From a virus (Duplodnaviria; Caudoviricetes), in IMG/VR virus record IMGVR_UViG_3300001687_000013, positions 1-64,000 of that record: a DNA stretch of 64,000 nt; one strand, written 5' to 3'. Below are positions 895-24,603 of this stretch, in pieces. The translations under genes were made by a program, and so were the position numbers. A model generated the notes under the pieces. That model did no database searches, was not told the DNA's origin, and was given only the letters and a program-made list of their open reading frames with translations. The stretch's first letter is position 1; every line of letters starts with the position of its first letter.

Positions 895-1245
895 TTACTT
901 TATCCATTTAAACTCACCAAATTCATATTTGGCTTTTGTATCATTAGCATAATCTATAGCTAACTGATCCTTGTCTTTTTTACTGATGAATACTCTTACT
1001 CCAAATTCCTTTTCATACATCTTAATTCCAGCATCAATAATTCTCCCAAAGGCCCTTGCAGCTAACTTAGTTTCATAAGTACCTTTGTCTAATATTTTTA
1101 ATAGGTGTTTTACTGTTGGGATATAATATTCTTTATACCATTTCTGGGTATTATCCATATACATTTGAAGATTCTCAGGATCATTCATAATCTCTTCAGA
1201 GTCCATCTCTCCTATGAGTGTCAGAATATCTTTTGATTTACTCAT
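895..1245 (-). CDS. leader-bearing hypothetical protein
   Basis: revised start MSKSKDILTLIGE. Confidence 0.75.
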   Translation of the reverse strand: MSKSKDILTLIGEMDSEEIMNDPENLQMYMDNTQKWYKEYYIPTVKHLLKILDKGTYETKLAARAFGRIIDAGIKMYEKEFGVRVFISKKDKDQLAIDYANDTKAKYEFGEFKWIK

Positions 1246-2650
1246 TATCTTTTTTCTCCTCATCCTTAGGCTTAGTGCTCAAAACAAATTTTTTGCCTGG
1301 GTTTACCATAACCTTAGCTTTTTTCATAAAATATCTATTCAATAAAATAGGGGAGATCTTTGTTTCACGGTTAGTGAGAGTACATTTTATATTTGGATAC
1401 AAATCGTTATTAAATTCAATATCGAACTTTACAACTGGTCTCTCTTCCGTATGATCGTGAAATCCTCCAACTTCTGTATTCTGGATTTCTACCAGATCTC
1501 TTTTATATTTCTTACCCTTAAATGTCCAGGTAACAGTCTTTTTCTTTTCATCCATTGTGTATTCATCAGCATGAAGAGCACAATGATTACCATTGCCTGT
1601 ATCCAGCTTGGCAACAATGTCCCCGAACTCTTTTATGTGTATAGTCTCAAGATAACCACACTCCGTTGCTTTATATGTCCAGTTATTCTTATCACTAATA
1701 TAATCCAAGACCACTGAGACTATATCCTCTTTTGTAGCCTCTTCTATCCCCTCAGTCCCAGGGGAAGAATTTACTTCAATAACTCTGAGACCATCTTTTG
1801 TAGGAATAAAATCAACTCCTACCCATATTCCCCCCACTGCTTTAGCAGCTAACAAACAAGCCTCTTCCTCTTCCTTGGATAATTTATATTTCTTAACCTT
1901 TCCTCCCAGGGAGAAATTGGATCTAAAATCATCCTCTATAACATCACGTCTCATAGCTCCAATAACCTTGTCACCCAGGACGTGTGCCCTAACATCAAAA
2001 TCAGTTGGAACATACTCTTGAATTAAAAGCTCTGCTTCTTCATCAATTTTCCATATGACTTGAAGGATAGATGTGAGAGATTTCCTTGACTCAACAAAGA
2101 ATACTCCAATCCCATGAGACCCACTAAGCGTCTTTACAACAATAGGAAATTTGTCACCAATAATCCCCAAGGCATGATCAATACTTTTCTTATTTTGTAT
2201 AAGTGCAGTCTTTGGAGTGGATACTCCAATATCTGCCAACTTCAAAATAGTTCGATACTTATCTCCACATATTTCCATACAATCCCTATAATTGATACAG
2301 AAAAGTCCTGCTTTTTCAAGCTGGGAAATTAAGTCTAAAGTAGATCTAAATTTAGTTACAGACCCACGAACTAAAGCAACCGTTTCATGAGGATTAAACT
2401 CAAAATCTTTATTGTCTTCTGAACTGTGAATTATATATGAAACACTGTTTACCCTCTCAATAGTAGCATCATCAACAAATACTATATAGTTGGGGATCTT
2501 CCTTTTATCACAGGTCTCTTTAACTCTCCTGGCAGTAGTAAACAACTGATCCTTATTCTCTTCCGAACGACTTGTTATTATTAGGATTTTGAAGCCTTCT
2601 TTGGGGGCAGCTTCATAAAGCTTTTTTACAAATGAACTTGATTTATTCAT
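1238..2650 (-). CDS. rimK: RimK-family ATP-grasp ligase fused to C-terminal retropepsin-like (RimK-associated) protease; leader-bearing
   Basis: DKY, PKT, VVKTLSGSHGIGV, LIQEY, FRSNFSLGG, GVDFI, IEVNSSPG; C-terminal AKLDTGN...RPVV...LLNR; N-terminus MNKSSSFVKKLYEA. Confidence 0.9.
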   Translation of the reverse strand: MNKSSSFVKKLYEAAPKEGFKILIITSRSEENKDQLFTTARRVKETCDKRKIPNYIVFVDDATIERVNSVSYIIHSSEDNKDFEFNPHETVALVRGSVTKFRSTLDLISQLEKAGLFCINYRDCMEICGDKYRTILKLADIGVSTPKTALIQNKKSIDHALGIIGDKFPIVVKTLSGSHGIGVFFVESRKSLTSILQVIWKIDEEAELLIQEYVPTDFDVRAHVLGDKVIGAMRRDVIEDDFRSNFSLGGKVKKYKLSKEEEEACLLAAKAVGGIWVGVDFIPTKDGLRVIEVNSSPGTEGIEEATKEDIVSVVLDYISDKNNWTYKATECGYLETIHIKEFGDIVAKLDTGNGNHCALHADEYTMDEKKKTVTWTFKGKKYKRDLVEIQNTEVGGFHDHTEERPVVKFDIEFNNDLYPNIKCTLTNRETKISPILLNRYFMKKAKVMVNPGKKFVLSTKPKDEEKKDNE

Positions 2651-3317: not shown

Positions 3318-4525
3318 TTCATCATACCTCCTGTTGGGACTTCCCCTAACATATCTCTCGATGTGCTAACAACCTCTACTCTGGATAATTCTACCTGACC
3401 TTGGAAATCAGAACTTAGTGTTATTCCGTGGAGGTATTCAGTGTCATATCCATCTTTTGTGACCTTTGCTATAAAAGGCCCGTAATCCTTTGTAGGATTG
3501 GTGTCTAAGTTAAGTTTAAAATCTTCTGTATAAGACCCAGTATCATCAGGCCAGGTCTTTTGGCAATAGGATCTCTCTACCACCTGCTGAACTATGTTTC
3601 CATTGGAGTCAGTCATTACTGAAAATATTTGATCCCAATCAATATTAAATAGAGTAACAGTAGCATTTGGAATTGGGACTCCCCTACTATCTACTACCTT
3701 AAAATTAAATCTATGTTCACGTACAACCTTTGGGTTTCCAGTGACCCAGTATCGAAAGTTGACTTCCCAATTGTCAACATCAAAACCCTGACCCACATAA
3801 ATTGTTTTCTCGTCTGTACCACTGAAATGATCCTGAATATTTACCAGGGATTCATATTCTCTACAGTAGAGGTCTGTGACATGTTTCCCGTTCATCCACT
3901 CATCAGGTGTAATAGGCCAATAACCTACATTAAATATTTTGTCCCTTAATCCAATAGATTCAGGAACAAAAGATGAATAACCACGATAAATATTTTCAAG
4001 TGTATTGTTGTAATCACTTACCTCATTTCCACCCAGGAAATAACATCCATCTAATCGATTATTCCATAGACGACCCTTTGTACATGCAATTATACCAACT
4101 TGAGATCCTTTGTTTCTTATAGAACATCCATATAGATGTAATTCTCCATTGGTTTGATCATTCCACATGAGATAGGTTTGTGCTGCTTGTTGAAAGATAA
4201 AACCGACTCCACCAACACAATTATAGATATTCTCATTATTGGTATAACCAAATCTTAAGAATCCACTCTCAACTCTGATTATAAATCCACTACCACCAAT
4301 CATAGGATCAATTAAAGCTTGTTTGGTATCATCTACAACATAACTGTTTGTTATGATAACCCTACATTTCTGATAATACTGGAAGAGGTTTGCCCTAAGC
4401 ATAACATTCCACCCACCAGCTTGATCATATGTGTAAGTATCAGCGAAATAAAAATAAGGTGATCCGAATGTACCTTCCCCATCAATATATACTGTACTTG
4501 ATGGTTGATCATATGTTACTGACAT
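3314..4525 (-). CDS. putative virion protein, beta-helix-like region plus carboxypeptidase-regulatory-like beta-sandwich
   Basis: VVDSRGVPIPNATV...TDSNG...VTKDGY pattern; beta-rich N-terminal part. Confidence 0.6.
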   Translation of the reverse strand: MSVTYDQPSSTVYIDGEGTFGSPYFYFADTYTYDQAGGWNVMLRANLFQYYQKCRVIITNSYVVDDTKQALIDPMIGGSGFIIRVESGFLRFGYTNNENIYNCVGGVGFIFQQAAQTYLMWNDQTNGELHLYGCSIRNKGSQVGIIACTKGRLWNNRLDGCYFLGGNEVSDYNNTLENIYRGYSSFVPESIGLRDKIFNVGYWPITPDEWMNGKHVTDLYCREYESLVNIQDHFSGTDEKTIYVGQGFDVDNWEVNFRYWVTGNPKVVREHRFNFKVVDSRGVPIPNATVTLFNIDWDQIFSVMTDSNGNIVQQVVERSYCQKTWPDDTGSYTEDFKLNLDTNPTKDYGPFIAKVTKDGYDTEYLHGITLSSDFQGQVELSRVEVVSTSRDMLGEVPTGGMMK

Positions 4526-4526
4526 A

Positions 4527-4871
4527 TCATTCTCTCTTCTTCATATTCTTTATGAAGTCCATTACAGGTTTAGCTTCTATTGAGTCATAGACAAGCCTAT
4601 TGTCATAAAACTCATTAATTCCTTCTTGTTCCTTTAATTCTGATTCTTTTTCTTTTCGTGTAATACCTTCCCAATTTCTTGCATTTTTACAATAATAGTG
4701 GTGACAATCCCACTTGGGAGTATTTACACAAGCTTTAAAAAAAGCTCTTTTTTTCTCTTCTGGGAAATTGGGTGTTTCATCGAAGTGCCTGTCATTAACA
4801 CCCCAATAATTTTCCCGTAATCTATGATTATAGATCCTTTCAACATGATGTCTTCTAATGGCACGTTTCAT
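4527..4871 (-). CDS. basic hypothetical phage protein
   Basis: MKRAIRRHH...TPKWDCHHYYCKNAR. Confidence 0.65.
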   Translation of the reverse strand: MKRAIRRHHVERIYNHRLRENYWGVNDRHFDETPNFPEEKKRAFFKACVNTPKWDCHHYYCKNARNWEGITRKEKESELKEQEGINEFYDNRLVYDSIEAKPVMDFIKNMKKRE

Positions 4872-4980
4872 ATTTTTGCTCAATATCCAAACATTCTGTT
4901 CAAAATTTAAACAATAGTGTAAAAATCAGTTCGTTTAATTCTATAAACATCTCCATATTTATAATTTAATGTTGTTTTTG

Positions 4981-4997
4981 TTGGTATGCAATTTGCA
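4981..4997 (+). promoter_or_regulatory. sigma-54-type -24/-12 promoter
   Basis: TTGGTATGCAATTTGCA = TGG-N8-TTGC with exact spacing; followed by AAAGGAGG and an ATG. Confidence 0.6.
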
Positions 4998-5026
4998 TAT
5001 CTATAATAGTAAAGGAGGAAAACAAA

Positions 5027-5116
5027 ATGAACACCTTAATAATCATGATTGCAGCAGGGGGTATGATTTATGTTGCAAATTTATTAAGGTTCACACTGAT
5101 CCGAGTCCTTAGCTAA
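5027..5116 (+). CDS. 29-aa hydrophobic peptide
   Basis: AAAGGAGG RBS; MNTLIIMIAAGGMIYVANLLRFTLIRVLS. Confidence 0.6.
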   Translation: MNTLIIMIAAGGMIYVANLLRFTLIRVLS

Positions 5117-5122
5117 CTTAAT

Positions 5123-5185
5123 CTGGAAAATAGCCCTGGGTCTATGCTTTTAGAGTATAGTCTAATCTGGGCCTTCCAGGTTTTT
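5123..5185 (+). terminator. long hairpin with T-tract
   Basis: CTGGAA...GCCC...GGGC...TTCCAG followed by GTTTTT. Confidence 0.4.
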
Positions 5186-5243
5186 GAAAGTTGATTAAAA
5201 GGTTACAAATGACCGATAAGTAAGTATAAGGAGGATTACAAGT

Positions 5244-5315
5244 ATGATAATAACACCAAGAGTAATAATCTTAGTAATCTTACTTTTAATTGTATTACTT
5301 TTTCCTTTAGCATAA
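5244..5315 (+). CDS. 23-aa single-TM peptide
   Basis: AAGGAGG RBS; MIITPRVIILVILLLIVLLFPLA. Confidence 0.6.
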   Translation: MIITPRVIILVILLLIVLLFPLA

Positions 5316-5326
5316 AGGAGATAACC

Positions 5327-5539
5327 ATGATGATTTGCCCACTTACCCATAAAAAAGCAGTTTTAAAAAACTGTGTAAAAACTTGTCCAGGCCCTTGCCA
5401 AGAAATGAAAGAACTTTCCAAGAAGGAACAGGAAATGGAAAAAGCAGTTGTTGACTTAGCCACAAATATCCTTAGAGAGGAAGAGGAAGCCCGTAAGGTT
5501 CACAAACATGATGGAGGACTGGAAAGTTATGAAGACTAA
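5327..5539 (+). CDS. Cys-containing hypothetical protein
   Basis: AAGGAG RBS; CPL...C..TCPGPC. Confidence 0.65.
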   Translation: MMICPLTHKKAVLKNCVKTCPGPCQEMKELSKKEQEMEKAVVDLATNILREEEEARKVHKHDGGLESYED

Positions 5540-5756
5540 AAAAGCCTATAAAACTGTAATATTACCAGTGACCGTTCCTGACTCCGATTACTGTTGGAGG
5601 AAAGGTCAGATGGTATGTCCATATCTCGATACCTTCAAGAATCCTATTAAATGCAACTTAGGGTTTTGTGGTGTTCACTTTAATGAAAATGGTGTTATTC
5701 TTAAACCTGAAAGCTGTTTAAATCTAAAACCAGAAAGTAAACCGAAGAAAAATTAA
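5529..5756 (+). CDS. Cys-rich hypothetical protein
   Basis: overlaps previous gene; YCW...CPYL...C.LGF...KPESCL. Confidence 0.6.
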   Translation: MKTKKAYKTVILPVTVPDSDYCWRKGQMVCPYLDTFKNPIKCNLGFCGVHFNENGVILKPESCLNLKPESKPKKN

Positions 5757-5899
5757 CAAAATGTCGATAAGTATATATACGGGGGATAACAGAGAATGCA
5801 ACCCCCACCCATCGGCTAAGATCGGGCATGGTGAAATATCCACCCTGGCAAAGGCCGATATTAGAACATGCGTTGTGGGTGACACGATAAACCCTCATC

Positions 5900-5985
5900 A
5901 TCGGGCTTCGGGTCAAGTACCTCTTTTAGGGGTGTAGAGGGAAATGACCATATCCAGTTAATCACCCAATAGGATAAGCTCCGAT
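5900..5985 (+). ncRNA. structured RNA motif A, copy 1
   Basis: closing stem ATCGGGCTT/AAGCTCCGAT; AGTA-CCTCT..AGAGG-GAAA; loop GGGTG complementary to CACCC. Confidence 0.6.
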
Positions 5986-6290
5986 CCAATCCCTGGGGGG
6001 TTTGGAAGGTTCACCTGAAATCTTCCAGTTGTAGGTATCCTTAAACCTTCCGTTGGGGGCTACGTGAGTGCCCCTTTTATAAACCTTTAACTACCCGTTA
6101 AAGCTCAATCTCCTTGAATGGAGAAAGCCAGGGAGGAGGGGAAAACGATGTATTAATATGAAAATATTATAAATCATCGGATAGTTTTAATTTGCCAATT
6201 ATATTGCCTGGGAGTTTTTTCGTGGGTTTTTCTCCTTTGCAAAAAAACCTACATTGATTTTTCTCAGGCTTTTGAAAGTTACTTTATGGT

Positions 6291-6372
6291 AAGGGTCTGG
6301 TAAAGTACCTCTTCTAAGGGTGTAAGAGGGAAAGAAGTTCCGTACAGTTAATCACTCTATAGAGAGACCCTT
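6291..6372 (+). ncRNA. structured RNA motif A, copy 2
   Basis: closing stem AAGGGTCT/AGACCCTT; AGTA-CCTCTT..AAGAGG-GAAA; GGGTG/CACTC; CAGTTAATCAC shared with copy 1. Confidence 0.6.
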
Positions 6373-6420
6373 TTGGGTTGTGGGTGAGCCTTATGCCTTA
6401 ACTTAAAAACCCTCATTATA

Positions 6421-6552
6421 TGTAGTCATTTTTGTAGACAATATTAACTGGGTTCGATTCCCAGTGTCCCGAATGAGTATAACCTACTCAACCCTATTTG
6501 GGATAGGAGAGATGGTGTAATGGAAACACGGTCTACTTAAAAACGTGCCACA
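6421..6552 (+). ncRNA. circularly permuted tRNA-like RNA (YrlA-type Y RNA architecture)
   Basis: GTAGAC/GTCTAC stem encloses a T-arm (CTGGG TTCGATT CCCAG), a closed stem-loop, then a D-arm (GTGT AATGGAA ACAC). Confidence 0.65.
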
Positions 6553-6645
6553 CACGTTGCATGTCCTATCATTGGATAAAGGTTTGTAGATTTTCCTACT
6601 TAAAAATCCTACGTATTGAAAAAATGTTTTTCATAAATTAGAGTA

Positions 6646-6675
6646 AGGGGGAGAGTAACAAAAAATTCTCCCCCG
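6646..6675. terminator. GC-rich hairpin at convergent junction
   Basis: GGGGGAGA...TCTCCCCC. Confidence 0.45.
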
Positions 6676-6798
6676 ACCTCCAATCTTATAATTTCCTCTT
6701 CAGGAATACCCCCCAGAATAAGGCACTCGATTATCACACGACACTTACCCTTTGTAGAGCAACTTGTGTCTTAAAATGGACATGAGGGCCTTATTTGA

Positions 6799-7176
6799 TT
6801 ATCTTAAGAATCCGAACCCAATTATAGACTCTGGATCTATTGTAGGAAGATTCTTACTTGATAAAAAGTTATTTACCTGGTCAATTGTTGGGTTACTTAC
6901 CAATAGTTGTGAATATTCCCAAACAAATTTTTCCACAACCTCTTTGCCTCTTTCTTTATATTCTAAAGCTTTGGCAATTCCAGGATATTCACTGGCCCAA
7001 TATATATTTGTTAAAGCATTCTCAAAGTCATGCATTTTAAGTGCAGCTTGAGTAGCATCAAGACCTGTAAGAAGACCCACGATCCTGCCAGTCATATTTT
7101 CTATTTCTGCATCCAGCAATGTACCCTTTGGTAACACATAATCCAAAACCTCTAAAACTTGCTTTGCCTTGTTCAT
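6799..7176 (-). CDS. leader-bearing hypothetical protein
   Basis: MNKAKQVLEVLD. Confidence 0.8.
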   Translation of the reverse strand: MNKAKQVLEVLDYVLPKGTLLDAEIENMTGRIVGLLTGLDATQAALKMHDFENALTNIYWASEYPGIAKALEYKERGKEVVEKFVWEYSQLLVSNPTIDQVNNFLSSKNLPTIDPESIIGFGFLR

Positions 7177-23599: not shown

Positions 23600-24232
23600 T
23601 TAACTTACATATTCAGCAAAATTCATAGCTGCTTCCTTAGCCTGATCCATATTCCTTATGGTTACAGATCCACCTTTTACAAATGGGGTATCTTCAGTCA
23701 TCCCCCCATATTCCTTCTCATTAAACAGCTTGTCCCCAGTTGTAAAGACACATATAGCCCTGTGTGACCATCCTGCCCATCCAGTTTTTCCTTTATGAAT
23801 TCCCTGTGGGACATTTTCACAGAATCCAATAGAACATACTGAATGACTTTTCTTAGACTTCATAATCTTTGTCATTCCATATTTTTCAACCAGGAGTTTT
23901 GCCATTTTAGGCTCCCCTATATAACCATTGTCCTCTTTTGAGTAAGCAACAGTCATTTCCAGGGGTTTATCTTTAGGCCCACCAAAATATGTTTGATCCC
24001 ACAATTCCTTGCGAACTTCATAAACTCCATGATCTTTTACATCTAAGACTTTTACAACATCTATCTTTTCAAATATCAGTTTAACAGCTTCATAAATATC
24101 ATACTGCATTTCGGATATATTGAAGATCATATTTTTATGATCTATAAGGTTTTGTATTTCCCTCATAAGAAGGGAGGCATATTCCTGGTCTATGGACTCT
24201 GATAGATTTATTAATTCGTTAGCTGTTCTCAT
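23600..24232 (-). CDS. leader-bearing hypothetical protein
   Basis: revised start MRTANELINLSE; CSIGF...WAGWSHRA..F..GD. Confidence 0.8.
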   Translation of the reverse strand: MRTANELINLSESIDQEYASLLMREIQNLIDHKNMIFNISEMQYDIYEAVKLIFEKIDVVKVLDVKDHGVYEVRKELWDQTYFGGPKDKPLEMTVAYSKEDNGYIGEPKMAKLLVEKYGMTKIMKSKKSHSVCSIGFCENVPQGIHKGKTGWAGWSHRAICVFTTGDKLFNEKEYGGMTEDTPFVKGGSVTIRNMDQAKEAAMNFAEYVS

Positions 24233-24243
24233 GACTTCCTCAA

Positions 24244-24603
24244 TTATTTTCTCTTTCCAAATAGTCTTACAGCCCAATACATCACTACCTGTCTCCAAAT
24301 TTTAGTTTTACAAACTATCATAGCTTCTTTCATAATCTTGTCAGCTATTTTACGTTCAATGTTTGTTTCTCTATAAAGATAATCATGTATAACAACTGCT
24401 TTAGAGTATCTCCCCCATCTGGGGATTATTGCCCAAAGTATTCTTGGGACACTGGCTCCATCTGTAATAAATCCAACTGGGACATTTATTTCATGACCCC
24501 AAGGCAACCCTATATCGGTTATATATTGAAAAGGTTGTTTAACCTCCCAATCATATCCGTTATCTAATGGTGAAATAACTAATTTCTTAGTGAATTCAGC
24601 CAT
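24244..24603 (-). CDS. DUF1353-family protein
   Basis: VPVGFITDGASVPR..W...AVVIHDYLY...RK.AD...AVRLFG. Confidence 0.85.
   Translation of the reverse strand: MAEFTKKLVISPLDNGYDWEVKQPFQYITDIGLPWGHEINVPVGFITDGASVPRILWAIIPRWGRYSKAVVIHDYLYRETNIERKIADKIMKEAMIVCKTKIWRQVVMYWAVRLFGKRK

Follow-up and report, generated by a model that had tools for sequence, protein, structure and literature searches.

Why would a phage genome hold the two elbow-forming arms of a tRNA in inverted order, with the amino-acid end closed by a loop? The question is raised by an element of about 115 bases (6429-6543, + strand) that reads T-arm, acceptor-like stem, D-arm, and that an initial annotation had described as a circularly permuted tRNA mimic, with a decoy, a Y RNA, or, less probably, a permuted tRNA-Leu gene as candidate identities. 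The element lies in a 64,000-nucleotide stretch of DNA, hereafter called the window, which covers the initial 64 kb of a 98,020-bp IMG/VR record with a CheckV completeness of ∼44%. The phage is a large, uncultured, T4-like myovirus whose kinship to cultured phages is only distant. Genes for gp23, gp6, gp25, and a prohead protease were identified, as was one for a tail sheath that is 43% identical to the sheath of Rhizobium phages.

A permuted element with intact elbow arms

The T-arm, the closed stem in acceptor position, and the D-arm were all confirmed on the + strand where the initial annotation had placed them, and their coordinates are collected in Table 1 with those of the surrounding features. 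The sealed stem, UGUCCCG(AA) / (UU)UGGGAUA, comprises 7 to 11 bp and directly abuts the T stem. At the base of the element, the two outer strands are complementary over six Watson-Crick pairs, made with 6531-6536, and five A-U pairs, made with 6539-6543. The nucleotides that form the tRNA elbow are all present (U8, A14, G18G19, A21, G53, U54U55C56, A58, and C61), with A14 at 6519, G18 G19 at 6522-6523, and A21 at 6525 as landmarks of the D loop. The Levitt partner at position 48 (6447) is an A that faces A15 (6520), so that no Levitt pair forms.

The 7-nt segment GGAGAGA looks like a relic tRNA acceptor 5' strand, and a 5' half similar to the GGAGAGA-UG segment was found in the phage tRNA-Gln of L008. 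Either 7 nt have been inserted here ahead of U8, or the segment forms the 5' strand of a lengthened D hairpin. Its canonical acceptor pairing with TGTCCCG, described as poor from the outset, is indeed limited to 4 of 7 positions. The likeness of the 3' side to a Leu(UAA) anticodon arm did not hold, since CTTAAAA is part of ACTTAAAAA, which is repeated locally (6401-6409, 6535-6543, and 6598-6606, all +; three copies in 206 nt, five in the whole 64 kb) and is thus not evidence of a Leu anticodon loop. ACTTAAAAA could be a processing or pairing signal, and the extra copies of ACUUAAAAA are alternative partners for UUUUUGUAG (6429-6437).

Table 1. Coordinates of the permuted element and of features in its + strand surroundings
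Feature	Positions	Strand	Remarks
Sigma-54-type -24/-12 consensus TGGTATG-CAAT-TTGCA	4982-4997	+	Heads the + strand unit; putative link to the mimic
Two hydrophobic micro-ORFs with AGGAGG ribosome-binding sites	5028-5117, 5245-5316	+	Downstream of the sigma-54-type consensus
Second copy of the upstream hairpin	5872-5898	+	Same hairpin as 6377-6416
Hairpin UG-U-GGGU / ACCC-U-CA	6377-6416	+	3' end ∼12 nt upstream of the mimic
Long-range helix, 5' strand AUAUGUAG	6418-6425	+	Pairs with 6609-6616, probability ∼0.75
Outer stem, 5' strand TTTTT-GTAGAC	6429-6439	+	UAGAC = tRNA positions 39-43 (6435-6439)
Variable-region analogue AAUAUUAA, 8 nt	6440-6447	+	Final base A, versus a pyrimidine conserved in YrlA
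T-arm CTGGG/TTCGATT/CCCAG, fully canonical	6448-6464	+	Stem 6448-6452/6460-6464; U54 U55 C56 G57 A58 = 6453-6457
Acceptor-like stem, 3' strand TGTCCCG	6465-6471	+	tRNA positions 66-72; A73 = 6472
Inner hairpin UGAGUA/UACUCA	6474-6490	+	Inside the sealed acceptor-like stem-loop 6465-6505
Acceptor-like stem, 5' strand TGGGATA	6499-6505	+	Pairs with TGTCCCG
Spacer GGAGAGATG = GGAGAGA + UG	6506-6514	+	U8 G9 = 6513-6514
D-arm GTGT/AATGGAA/ACAC	6515-6529	+	D stem 10-13/22-25 = 6515-6518/6526-6529
G26-like base	6530	+	One base between D stem and outer stem
Outer stem, 3' strand GTCTAC-TT-AAAAA	6531-6543	+	27-31 = 6531-6535; carries one ACUUAAAAA copy
Long-range helix, 3' strand CUACGUAU	6609-6616	+	Would close a ∼200-nt domain around the mimic

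The arms derive from tRNAs and their closures are improbable by chance

A scan for canonical T-arms (a 5-bp stem closing a TTCRANN loop, with G53/C61 required) returned four in the 98-kb record, namely, the three real tRNAs of the phage and this element. A D-arm and a T-arm identical to those of the element co-occur in ordinary tRNAs of phages, with several identities represented, among them a tRNA-Arg (L165) that carries both, indicating that the arms of the element are tRNA derived and are not look-alikes. The two halves are not copies of this phage's own tRNAs.

Chance was assessed by keeping the T and D arms fixed and shuffling the remaining bases. An outer stem of at least six Watson-Crick pairs in the tRNA-like register was obtained in 1.7% of the shuffles (p=0.017), an acceptor-like stem with 7 bp or more directly adjoining the T stem in 0.9% (p=0.009), and both closures jointly in 0.011% (p=1.1e-4). 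The T-arm, the D-arm, and the anticodon-type stem, some 44 nt in all, carry no flaw, in contrast to the ancestral acceptor pairing, which is gone and has been superseded by a new closure of 9 to 11 bp. Such selective preservation would argue against uniform neutral decay and would favor a selected RNA, as far as an argument from one sequence goes.

Competing folds share the same three hairpins

The T, closed-stem, and D hairpins are robust across all fold models, with pair probabilities above 0.98 when folded in the 6370-6700 context (0.99 for the T-arm, 0.99 for the acceptor-like stem, and 0.997 for the D-arm), and the folding energy of this region is better than that of all 100 shuffles (z=-3.8). 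The outer stem drawn by the initial annotation stands as complementarity but not as predicted fold. The minimum-free-energy fold omits it, and its 3' strand pairs with GAGAGAU (6507-6513), which lengthens the D hairpin by a competing extension of 7 bp, GAGAGAU (6507-6513) / GUCU-CUU (6531-6538), that is itself expected by chance in 1.3% of cases (p=0.013). In the 6370-6700 ensemble, the D extension reaches a probability of 0.8 to 1.0, versus ∼0.001 for the outer stem. In energy, the four-way junction trails the minimum-free-energy fold by 3.3 kcal/mol for the element alone (-30.4 versus -33.7 kcal/mol) and by 8 kcal/mol in the 6370-6700 context (-84.3 versus -92.3 kcal/mol). The long-range 8-bp helix 6418-6425/6609-6616 fits either fold model and is statistically undistinctive alone.

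In either modeled topology, the closed stem is predicted to stack on the T stem and a helix to stack on the D stem. Since the T and D loops are free to dock in both, the reading of the element as an elbow mimic survives, while a strict YrlA-like junction is uncertain.

A + strand island in a - strand genome arm

Nearly all genes of the phage are coded on the - strand, and the + strand unit that holds the element is the exception in this genome arm; the GC skew inverts over 4950-6600. The sigma-54-type consensus has 2 matches in the window versus 0.11 expected. After it, the unit holds two Cys-rich ORFs in addition to the micro-ORFs, whose ribosome-binding sites are strong. The stretch from ∼5760 to 6700, inside which the mimic is located, has no genes, a higher GC content, and repeated structured motifs.

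The hairpin present twice in this stretch, GTTGTGGGTGA-loop-AAACCCTCA with a conserved U-U mismatch, was also found in 11 other IMG/VR phage contigs (L127-L137), and a mimic follows it in 0 of these 11. In several of them, the hairpin is followed by a TTGAC-type promoter, and most have a gene start after that. In the window, the copy at 6327-6417 was weakly matched by drum RNA of Rfam (16.6 bits, for a gathering score of 43). Farther downstream, an 8-bp G/C hairpin, GGGGGAGA/UCUCCCCC, followed by GACCUCCA (6647-6682), gave a weak match to RtT RNA (22.6 bits, E=0.057); possibly, it terminates transcription bidirectionally, lying between the + unit and the - strand gene 6799-7176.

The - strand genes of the arm include a clear Pfam match to Tad6, a type I Thoeris inhibitor (23603-24025, inside ORF 23600-24298; 100.8 bits), and this anti-Thoeris homolog shows that the arm carries counter-defense genes. 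Another, at 1238-2650 (-), is a RimK-type ATP-grasp (Pfam RimK, 143.7 bits) fused to a putative Zn-protease domain (Zn_protease, 36.2 bits).

Known RNA families and Ro60

ARAGORN, run on both strands for tRNA and for tmRNA, permuted tmRNA included, and Rfam at gathering thresholds returned only the three real tRNAs, which lie elsewhere and on the strand opposite to that of the element. An ordinary tRNA gene or pseudogene was rejected, given that neither ARAGORN nor Rfam RF00005 finds a cloverleaf. A two-piece tmRNA was rejected as well: an encoded CCA, a G3-U70 pair, and a tag reading frame are lacking, and ARAGORN and the Rfam gathering thresholds are silent. At E<=10, the sole Rfam match in 6200-6800 was a local one of the tmRNA model on the T-arm (9.7 bits). 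The motif ACAGCAA does not occur in 5700-6800, and Rfam gave no partial tRNA signal in 4880-6800 besides the element. A group I intron or an intron-exon arrangement in permuted form (Rfam matched no intron, and the splice-site logic was unsuitable), an attP site or integration scar (halves in the wrong order, no integrase seen), and a GOLLD or ROOL RNA (no Rfam match) were likewise discarded.

The order of the arms agrees with the description of YrlA (Y RNA-like A; Rfam RF02553) by Chen et al. 2014 (PMC4201824), as had been proposed from the sequence. Membership in the Y RNAs, proposed at the same time, was not borne out. The YrlA covariance model (gathering score, 69 bits) has no match at E<=10 in 6200-6800 (601 nt) and none in the window at its gathering threshold, and yet it responds to a control mimic, L041 4235-4303, with 25.5 bits. 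The Ro60/Rsr contact motif GNCGAAN0-1G is absent from both strands of 5700-6800, and position 48 is an A. In line with the initial remark that the window holds no Ro60 gene, a search of the entire 98-kb record (∼44% complete) with TROVE (PF05731) gave no match at E<=10. The neighboring ORFs have no Pfam match to TROVE, VWA, or DUF7873; in the 59 ORFs that reach 120 aa or more and lie outside the structural gene block, no TROVE, VWA, DUF7873, RNA ligase, or CCA-adding enzyme was detected by Pfam. No candidate partner protein was found near the element.

Relatives and other permuted mimics

No ortholog of the element was retrieved by blastn from the phages collection, by exact and degenerate patterns from IMG/VR, or from the JGI metagenomes. 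The single match among the GTDB genomes, L138, was discarded as a chance match. A covariance model built from the element as a single sequence had no match in the four nearest tail-sheath relatives, searched whole. As for the locus, relatives of a neighboring 403-aa protein, at 56% identity, came from Logan/ENA only, an upstream 82-aa ORF is an orphan for which no relatives were found, and neither profile-based searches via the neighboring proteins (IMG/VR and JGI) nor tblastn (phages collection) recovered the locus.

The IMG/VR pattern scan produced 45 matches, mostly tandem tRNAs, whose T-then-D order makes them the main false positive, along with two independent permuted mimics, L031 and L041. 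The L031 mimic (6296-6417, -) consists of a T-arm, a closed stem, UG, a D-arm, and a 5-bp outer stem, with no Y-RNA handle. Its neighbors on either side are tRNA-Ala and tRNA-His, members of a 25-tRNA array; the phage contig that holds the array measures 139 kb, and HNH endonuclease genes lie close by. The mimic has no YrlA match and no relatives among cultured phages. The L041 mimic (4234-4304, +) lies directly upstream of a gene for a 492-aa protein (4370-5848, +) that has no TROVE match and carries a weak VWA domain at its C terminus. This protein is possibly a divergent Ro60-like partner, and it has no homolog in our 98-kb record. A further type, seen in L008 (∼5239-5349, -) and also in L027 and L044, is a T-arm flanked by the complementary segments CGGGGTC/GGCCCCG with no D or anticodon arm; in L008, this minihelix-like tRNA fragment is located ∼45 nt upstream of the phage tRNA-Gln.

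Discussion

We tentatively favor the view that the element is a tRNA-derived, Ro60-independent RNA that displays the tRNA elbow and might serve as a decoy or scaffold for tRNA-binding factors. It probably arose when the halves of an ordinary phage tRNA gene were rotated, and it is probably transcribed within a + strand small-RNA island (∼5760-6700), downstream of the sigma-54-type promoter and the micro-ORFs. Such an RNA would have kept both elbow arms, the T loop docking on the D loop in a putative L-shaped fold, while an aminoacylatable acceptor end would have been replaced by the loop-closed helix stacked on the T stem, with no anticodon loop. Since the tRNA elbow is presented without either functional end, the most likely role would be the binding of a factor that recognizes tRNA shape; modification enzymes, RNase P, or a tRNA-targeting nuclease are candidates, which the RNA would engage as a stable decoy or scaffold, acting without Ro60. 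Counting against this view are the failure to find an ortholog in the collections searched, the energetic cost of the four-way junction, the 7 nt inserted ahead of U8, the A at position 48, the lack of a candidate partner among the nearby proteins, and the 1.4 kb, hairpins included, between the promoter consensus and the element.

The predicted folds suggest another arrangement, in which the hairpins are modules of a larger structured RNA and radiate from a multiloop closed by 6418-6434/6601-6616, and in which the anticodon-like outer stem would never form, or would form only as an alternative conformer via a repeated ACUUAAAAA partner. We regard this as unlikely. The minimum-free-energy and ensemble folds favor it, the D extension that it contains is improbable by chance, and the three ACUUAAAAA copies offer UUUUUGUAG a choice of partners, whereas the outer stem lies in exact tRNA register, one base past the D stem, with its six Watson-Crick pairs, the energy models ignore the tertiary contacts that stabilize tRNA-like folds, and the long-range helix is not distinctive. 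The same T and D loops would be displayed, so that this arrangement differs from the elbow-displaying RNA that we favor in topology and not in kind. Non-functional debris of rearranged or tandem tRNA genes, with one gene's 3' half left beside the 5' half of its neighbor as a tRNA cluster decayed, seems to us rather unlikely. Both closures being improbable by chance argues against it, as does the perfection of the T, D, and outer stems next to an acceptor pairing that was lost and replaced. Moreover, the missing tRNA halves leave no trace upstream or downstream, no other partial tRNA matches occur in 4880-6800, and the halves do not derive from the phage's own tRNAs. Still, tandem tRNAs yield the same T-then-D order, GGAGAGA resembles an unused relic acceptor strand, and the element has no relatives, while the real tRNAs of the phage are elsewhere and on the other strand.

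That the element is a true YrlA-type Y RNA, served by a Ro60/Rsr protein from the missing part of the phage genome or from the host, we consider quite improbable. The T, closed-stem, D topology is shared, YrlA is known from phages, and the incompleteness of the record (CheckV, ∼44%) means that a Ro60 gene could lie outside it. These points have to be set against a covariance model that is silent here yet registers the L041 control, the missing GNCGAA(N)G, an outer stem of just 11 bp that is A/U-rich and has no Ro-binding helix, the lack of a TROVE match in 98 kb and of VWA in the 59 scanned ORFs, and the location of published YrlA genes within 4 kb of Ro60 on the same strand. We give hardly any credence to a permuted or two-piece tRNA gene, whose transcript would be cut by RNase P at 6498/6499, trimmed at its 3' end, given CCA, and perhaps ligated into a chargeable tRNA of Leu-UAA type. 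Although tRNA positions 39-73, followed by 1-38, each have a single counterpart in the element, the base at the discriminator position is A, and the closed stem has the at least 7 bp that go with cleavage by RNase P and the adding of CCA in Mycobacterium smegmatis YrlA, GGAGAGA/UGUCCCG pairs at 4 of 7 positions only, and if UGGGAUA served as the 5' strand instead, 7 nt would be inserted in front of U8. The pairing of the ends, 6 bp plus a 2-nt bulge plus five A-U pairs, is not a bulge-helix-bulge junction; CUUAAAA belongs to the thrice-repeated ACUUAAAAA motif and its bases are paired or bulged in the outer stem, so that there is no real anticodon loop; no RNA ligase or CCA enzyme was seen among the scanned ORFs; and ARAGORN, its permuted tmRNA search included, finds nothing. 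The permuted tRNA-Leu gene of the initial annotation therefore fails on its acceptor pairing, its junction, and its repeated "anticodon loop."

A more specific form of the decoy model can be drawn by analogy. In Salmonella, YrlA belongs to rsr-yrlBA-rtcBA, an operon under sigma-54/RtcR control that damaged tRNAs induce, and its tRNA-like domain was proposed to inhibit an anticodon nuclease competitively (Hughes et al., PMC7790460). A sigma-54 consensus heading the + strand unit makes a similar logic conceivable, in which a sigma-54-driven, Ro60-independent elbow decoy would absorb a host tRNA-targeting nuclease or another reader of tRNA shape. Under a promoter of this type, as in the RtcR-controlled operon, the decoy would switch on when defense nucleases cut tRNAs, and having no anticodon loop and no free 3' end, it would not be consumed. 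We hold this scenario to be improbable, a weak point being that the promoter consensus is 1.4 kb upstream of the element with hairpins in between.

In the literature that we found, tRNA mimics of the YrlA topology are described only as Ro60 partners. If the reading that we favor is true, a phage copy without the Ro60 handle would indicate that a sealed tRNA shape is useful by itself, which bears on how phages handle the host enzymes and defenses that read or cut tRNAs. The element is minimal and could serve to test the anticodon-nuclease inhibition suggested for YrlA (PMC7790460). A single orphan copy makes a case built on anatomy alone, to which we attach moderate weight.

Comparison with known systems

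Permuted tRNA genes are known in Cyanidioschyzon merolae and some archaea, where the 3' half comes first, the 5' half follows, and the gene is broken beside the anticodon loop. In our element, too, the 3' half precedes the 5' half and the break falls at that place; unlike in those genes, its acceptor strands are unpaired and it has no bulge-helix-bulge junction. The splicing endonuclease that matures permuted tRNA genes is not known from bacteria or phages. With two-piece tmRNA, the element shares the order T-arm, acceptor 3' strand, intervening segment, acceptor 5' strand, but it differs in lacking the encoded CCA, the G3-U70 pair, and the tag reading frame. The L031 mimic is another phage-borne RNA of the same architecture with no Y-RNA handle; it is part of a tRNA array, whereas our element lies outside tRNA arrays and on the strand opposite to the phage's tRNAs, and the two share sequence only in the T and D loops.

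YrlA is the system that invites the closest comparison (Chen et al. 2014, PMC4201824; Wang et al. 2018, bioRxiv 10.1101/312249). YrlA RNAs run stem, variable region, T, closed acceptor-like stem, D, stem; they occur in phages as well as in bacteria, their published genes lie at most 4 kb from Ro60 on the same strand, and GNCGAAN0-1G is the Ro60/Rsr contact near the 5' end (PMC4201824). Of note, tandem tRNAs were already flagged as false positives in the YrlA search of Chen et al. (PMC4201824). In M. smegmatis, YrlA is cleaved by RNase P and CCA tailed in vivo, the determinant being a closed stem of at least 7 bp (PMC4201824). Our element likewise has a closed acceptor-like stem of at least 7 bp, predicted to stack on the T stem; unlike in M. 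smegmatis YrlA, its helix extends beyond 7 bp, so that the leader would be base paired. Unlike the YrlA consensus and crystal structure, in which a dinucleotide joins the closed stem to the D stem, the element has the UG with the 7 nt GGAGAGA intervening between the closed stem and U8. It also departs from YrlA in having A and not a pyrimidine at position 48, a base stem that is short (11 bp), A/U-rich, and devoid of a Ro-binding helix, no covariance-model match, no GNCGAA(N)G, and no Ro60 gene within 4 kb or in the 98-kb record. As in YrlA, there is neither a free CCA end nor an anticodon loop, the arms follow each other in the same circular order, and the T and D loops, both canonical, are able to form an elbow. 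The element is thus the YrlA topology minus the Ro60 features.
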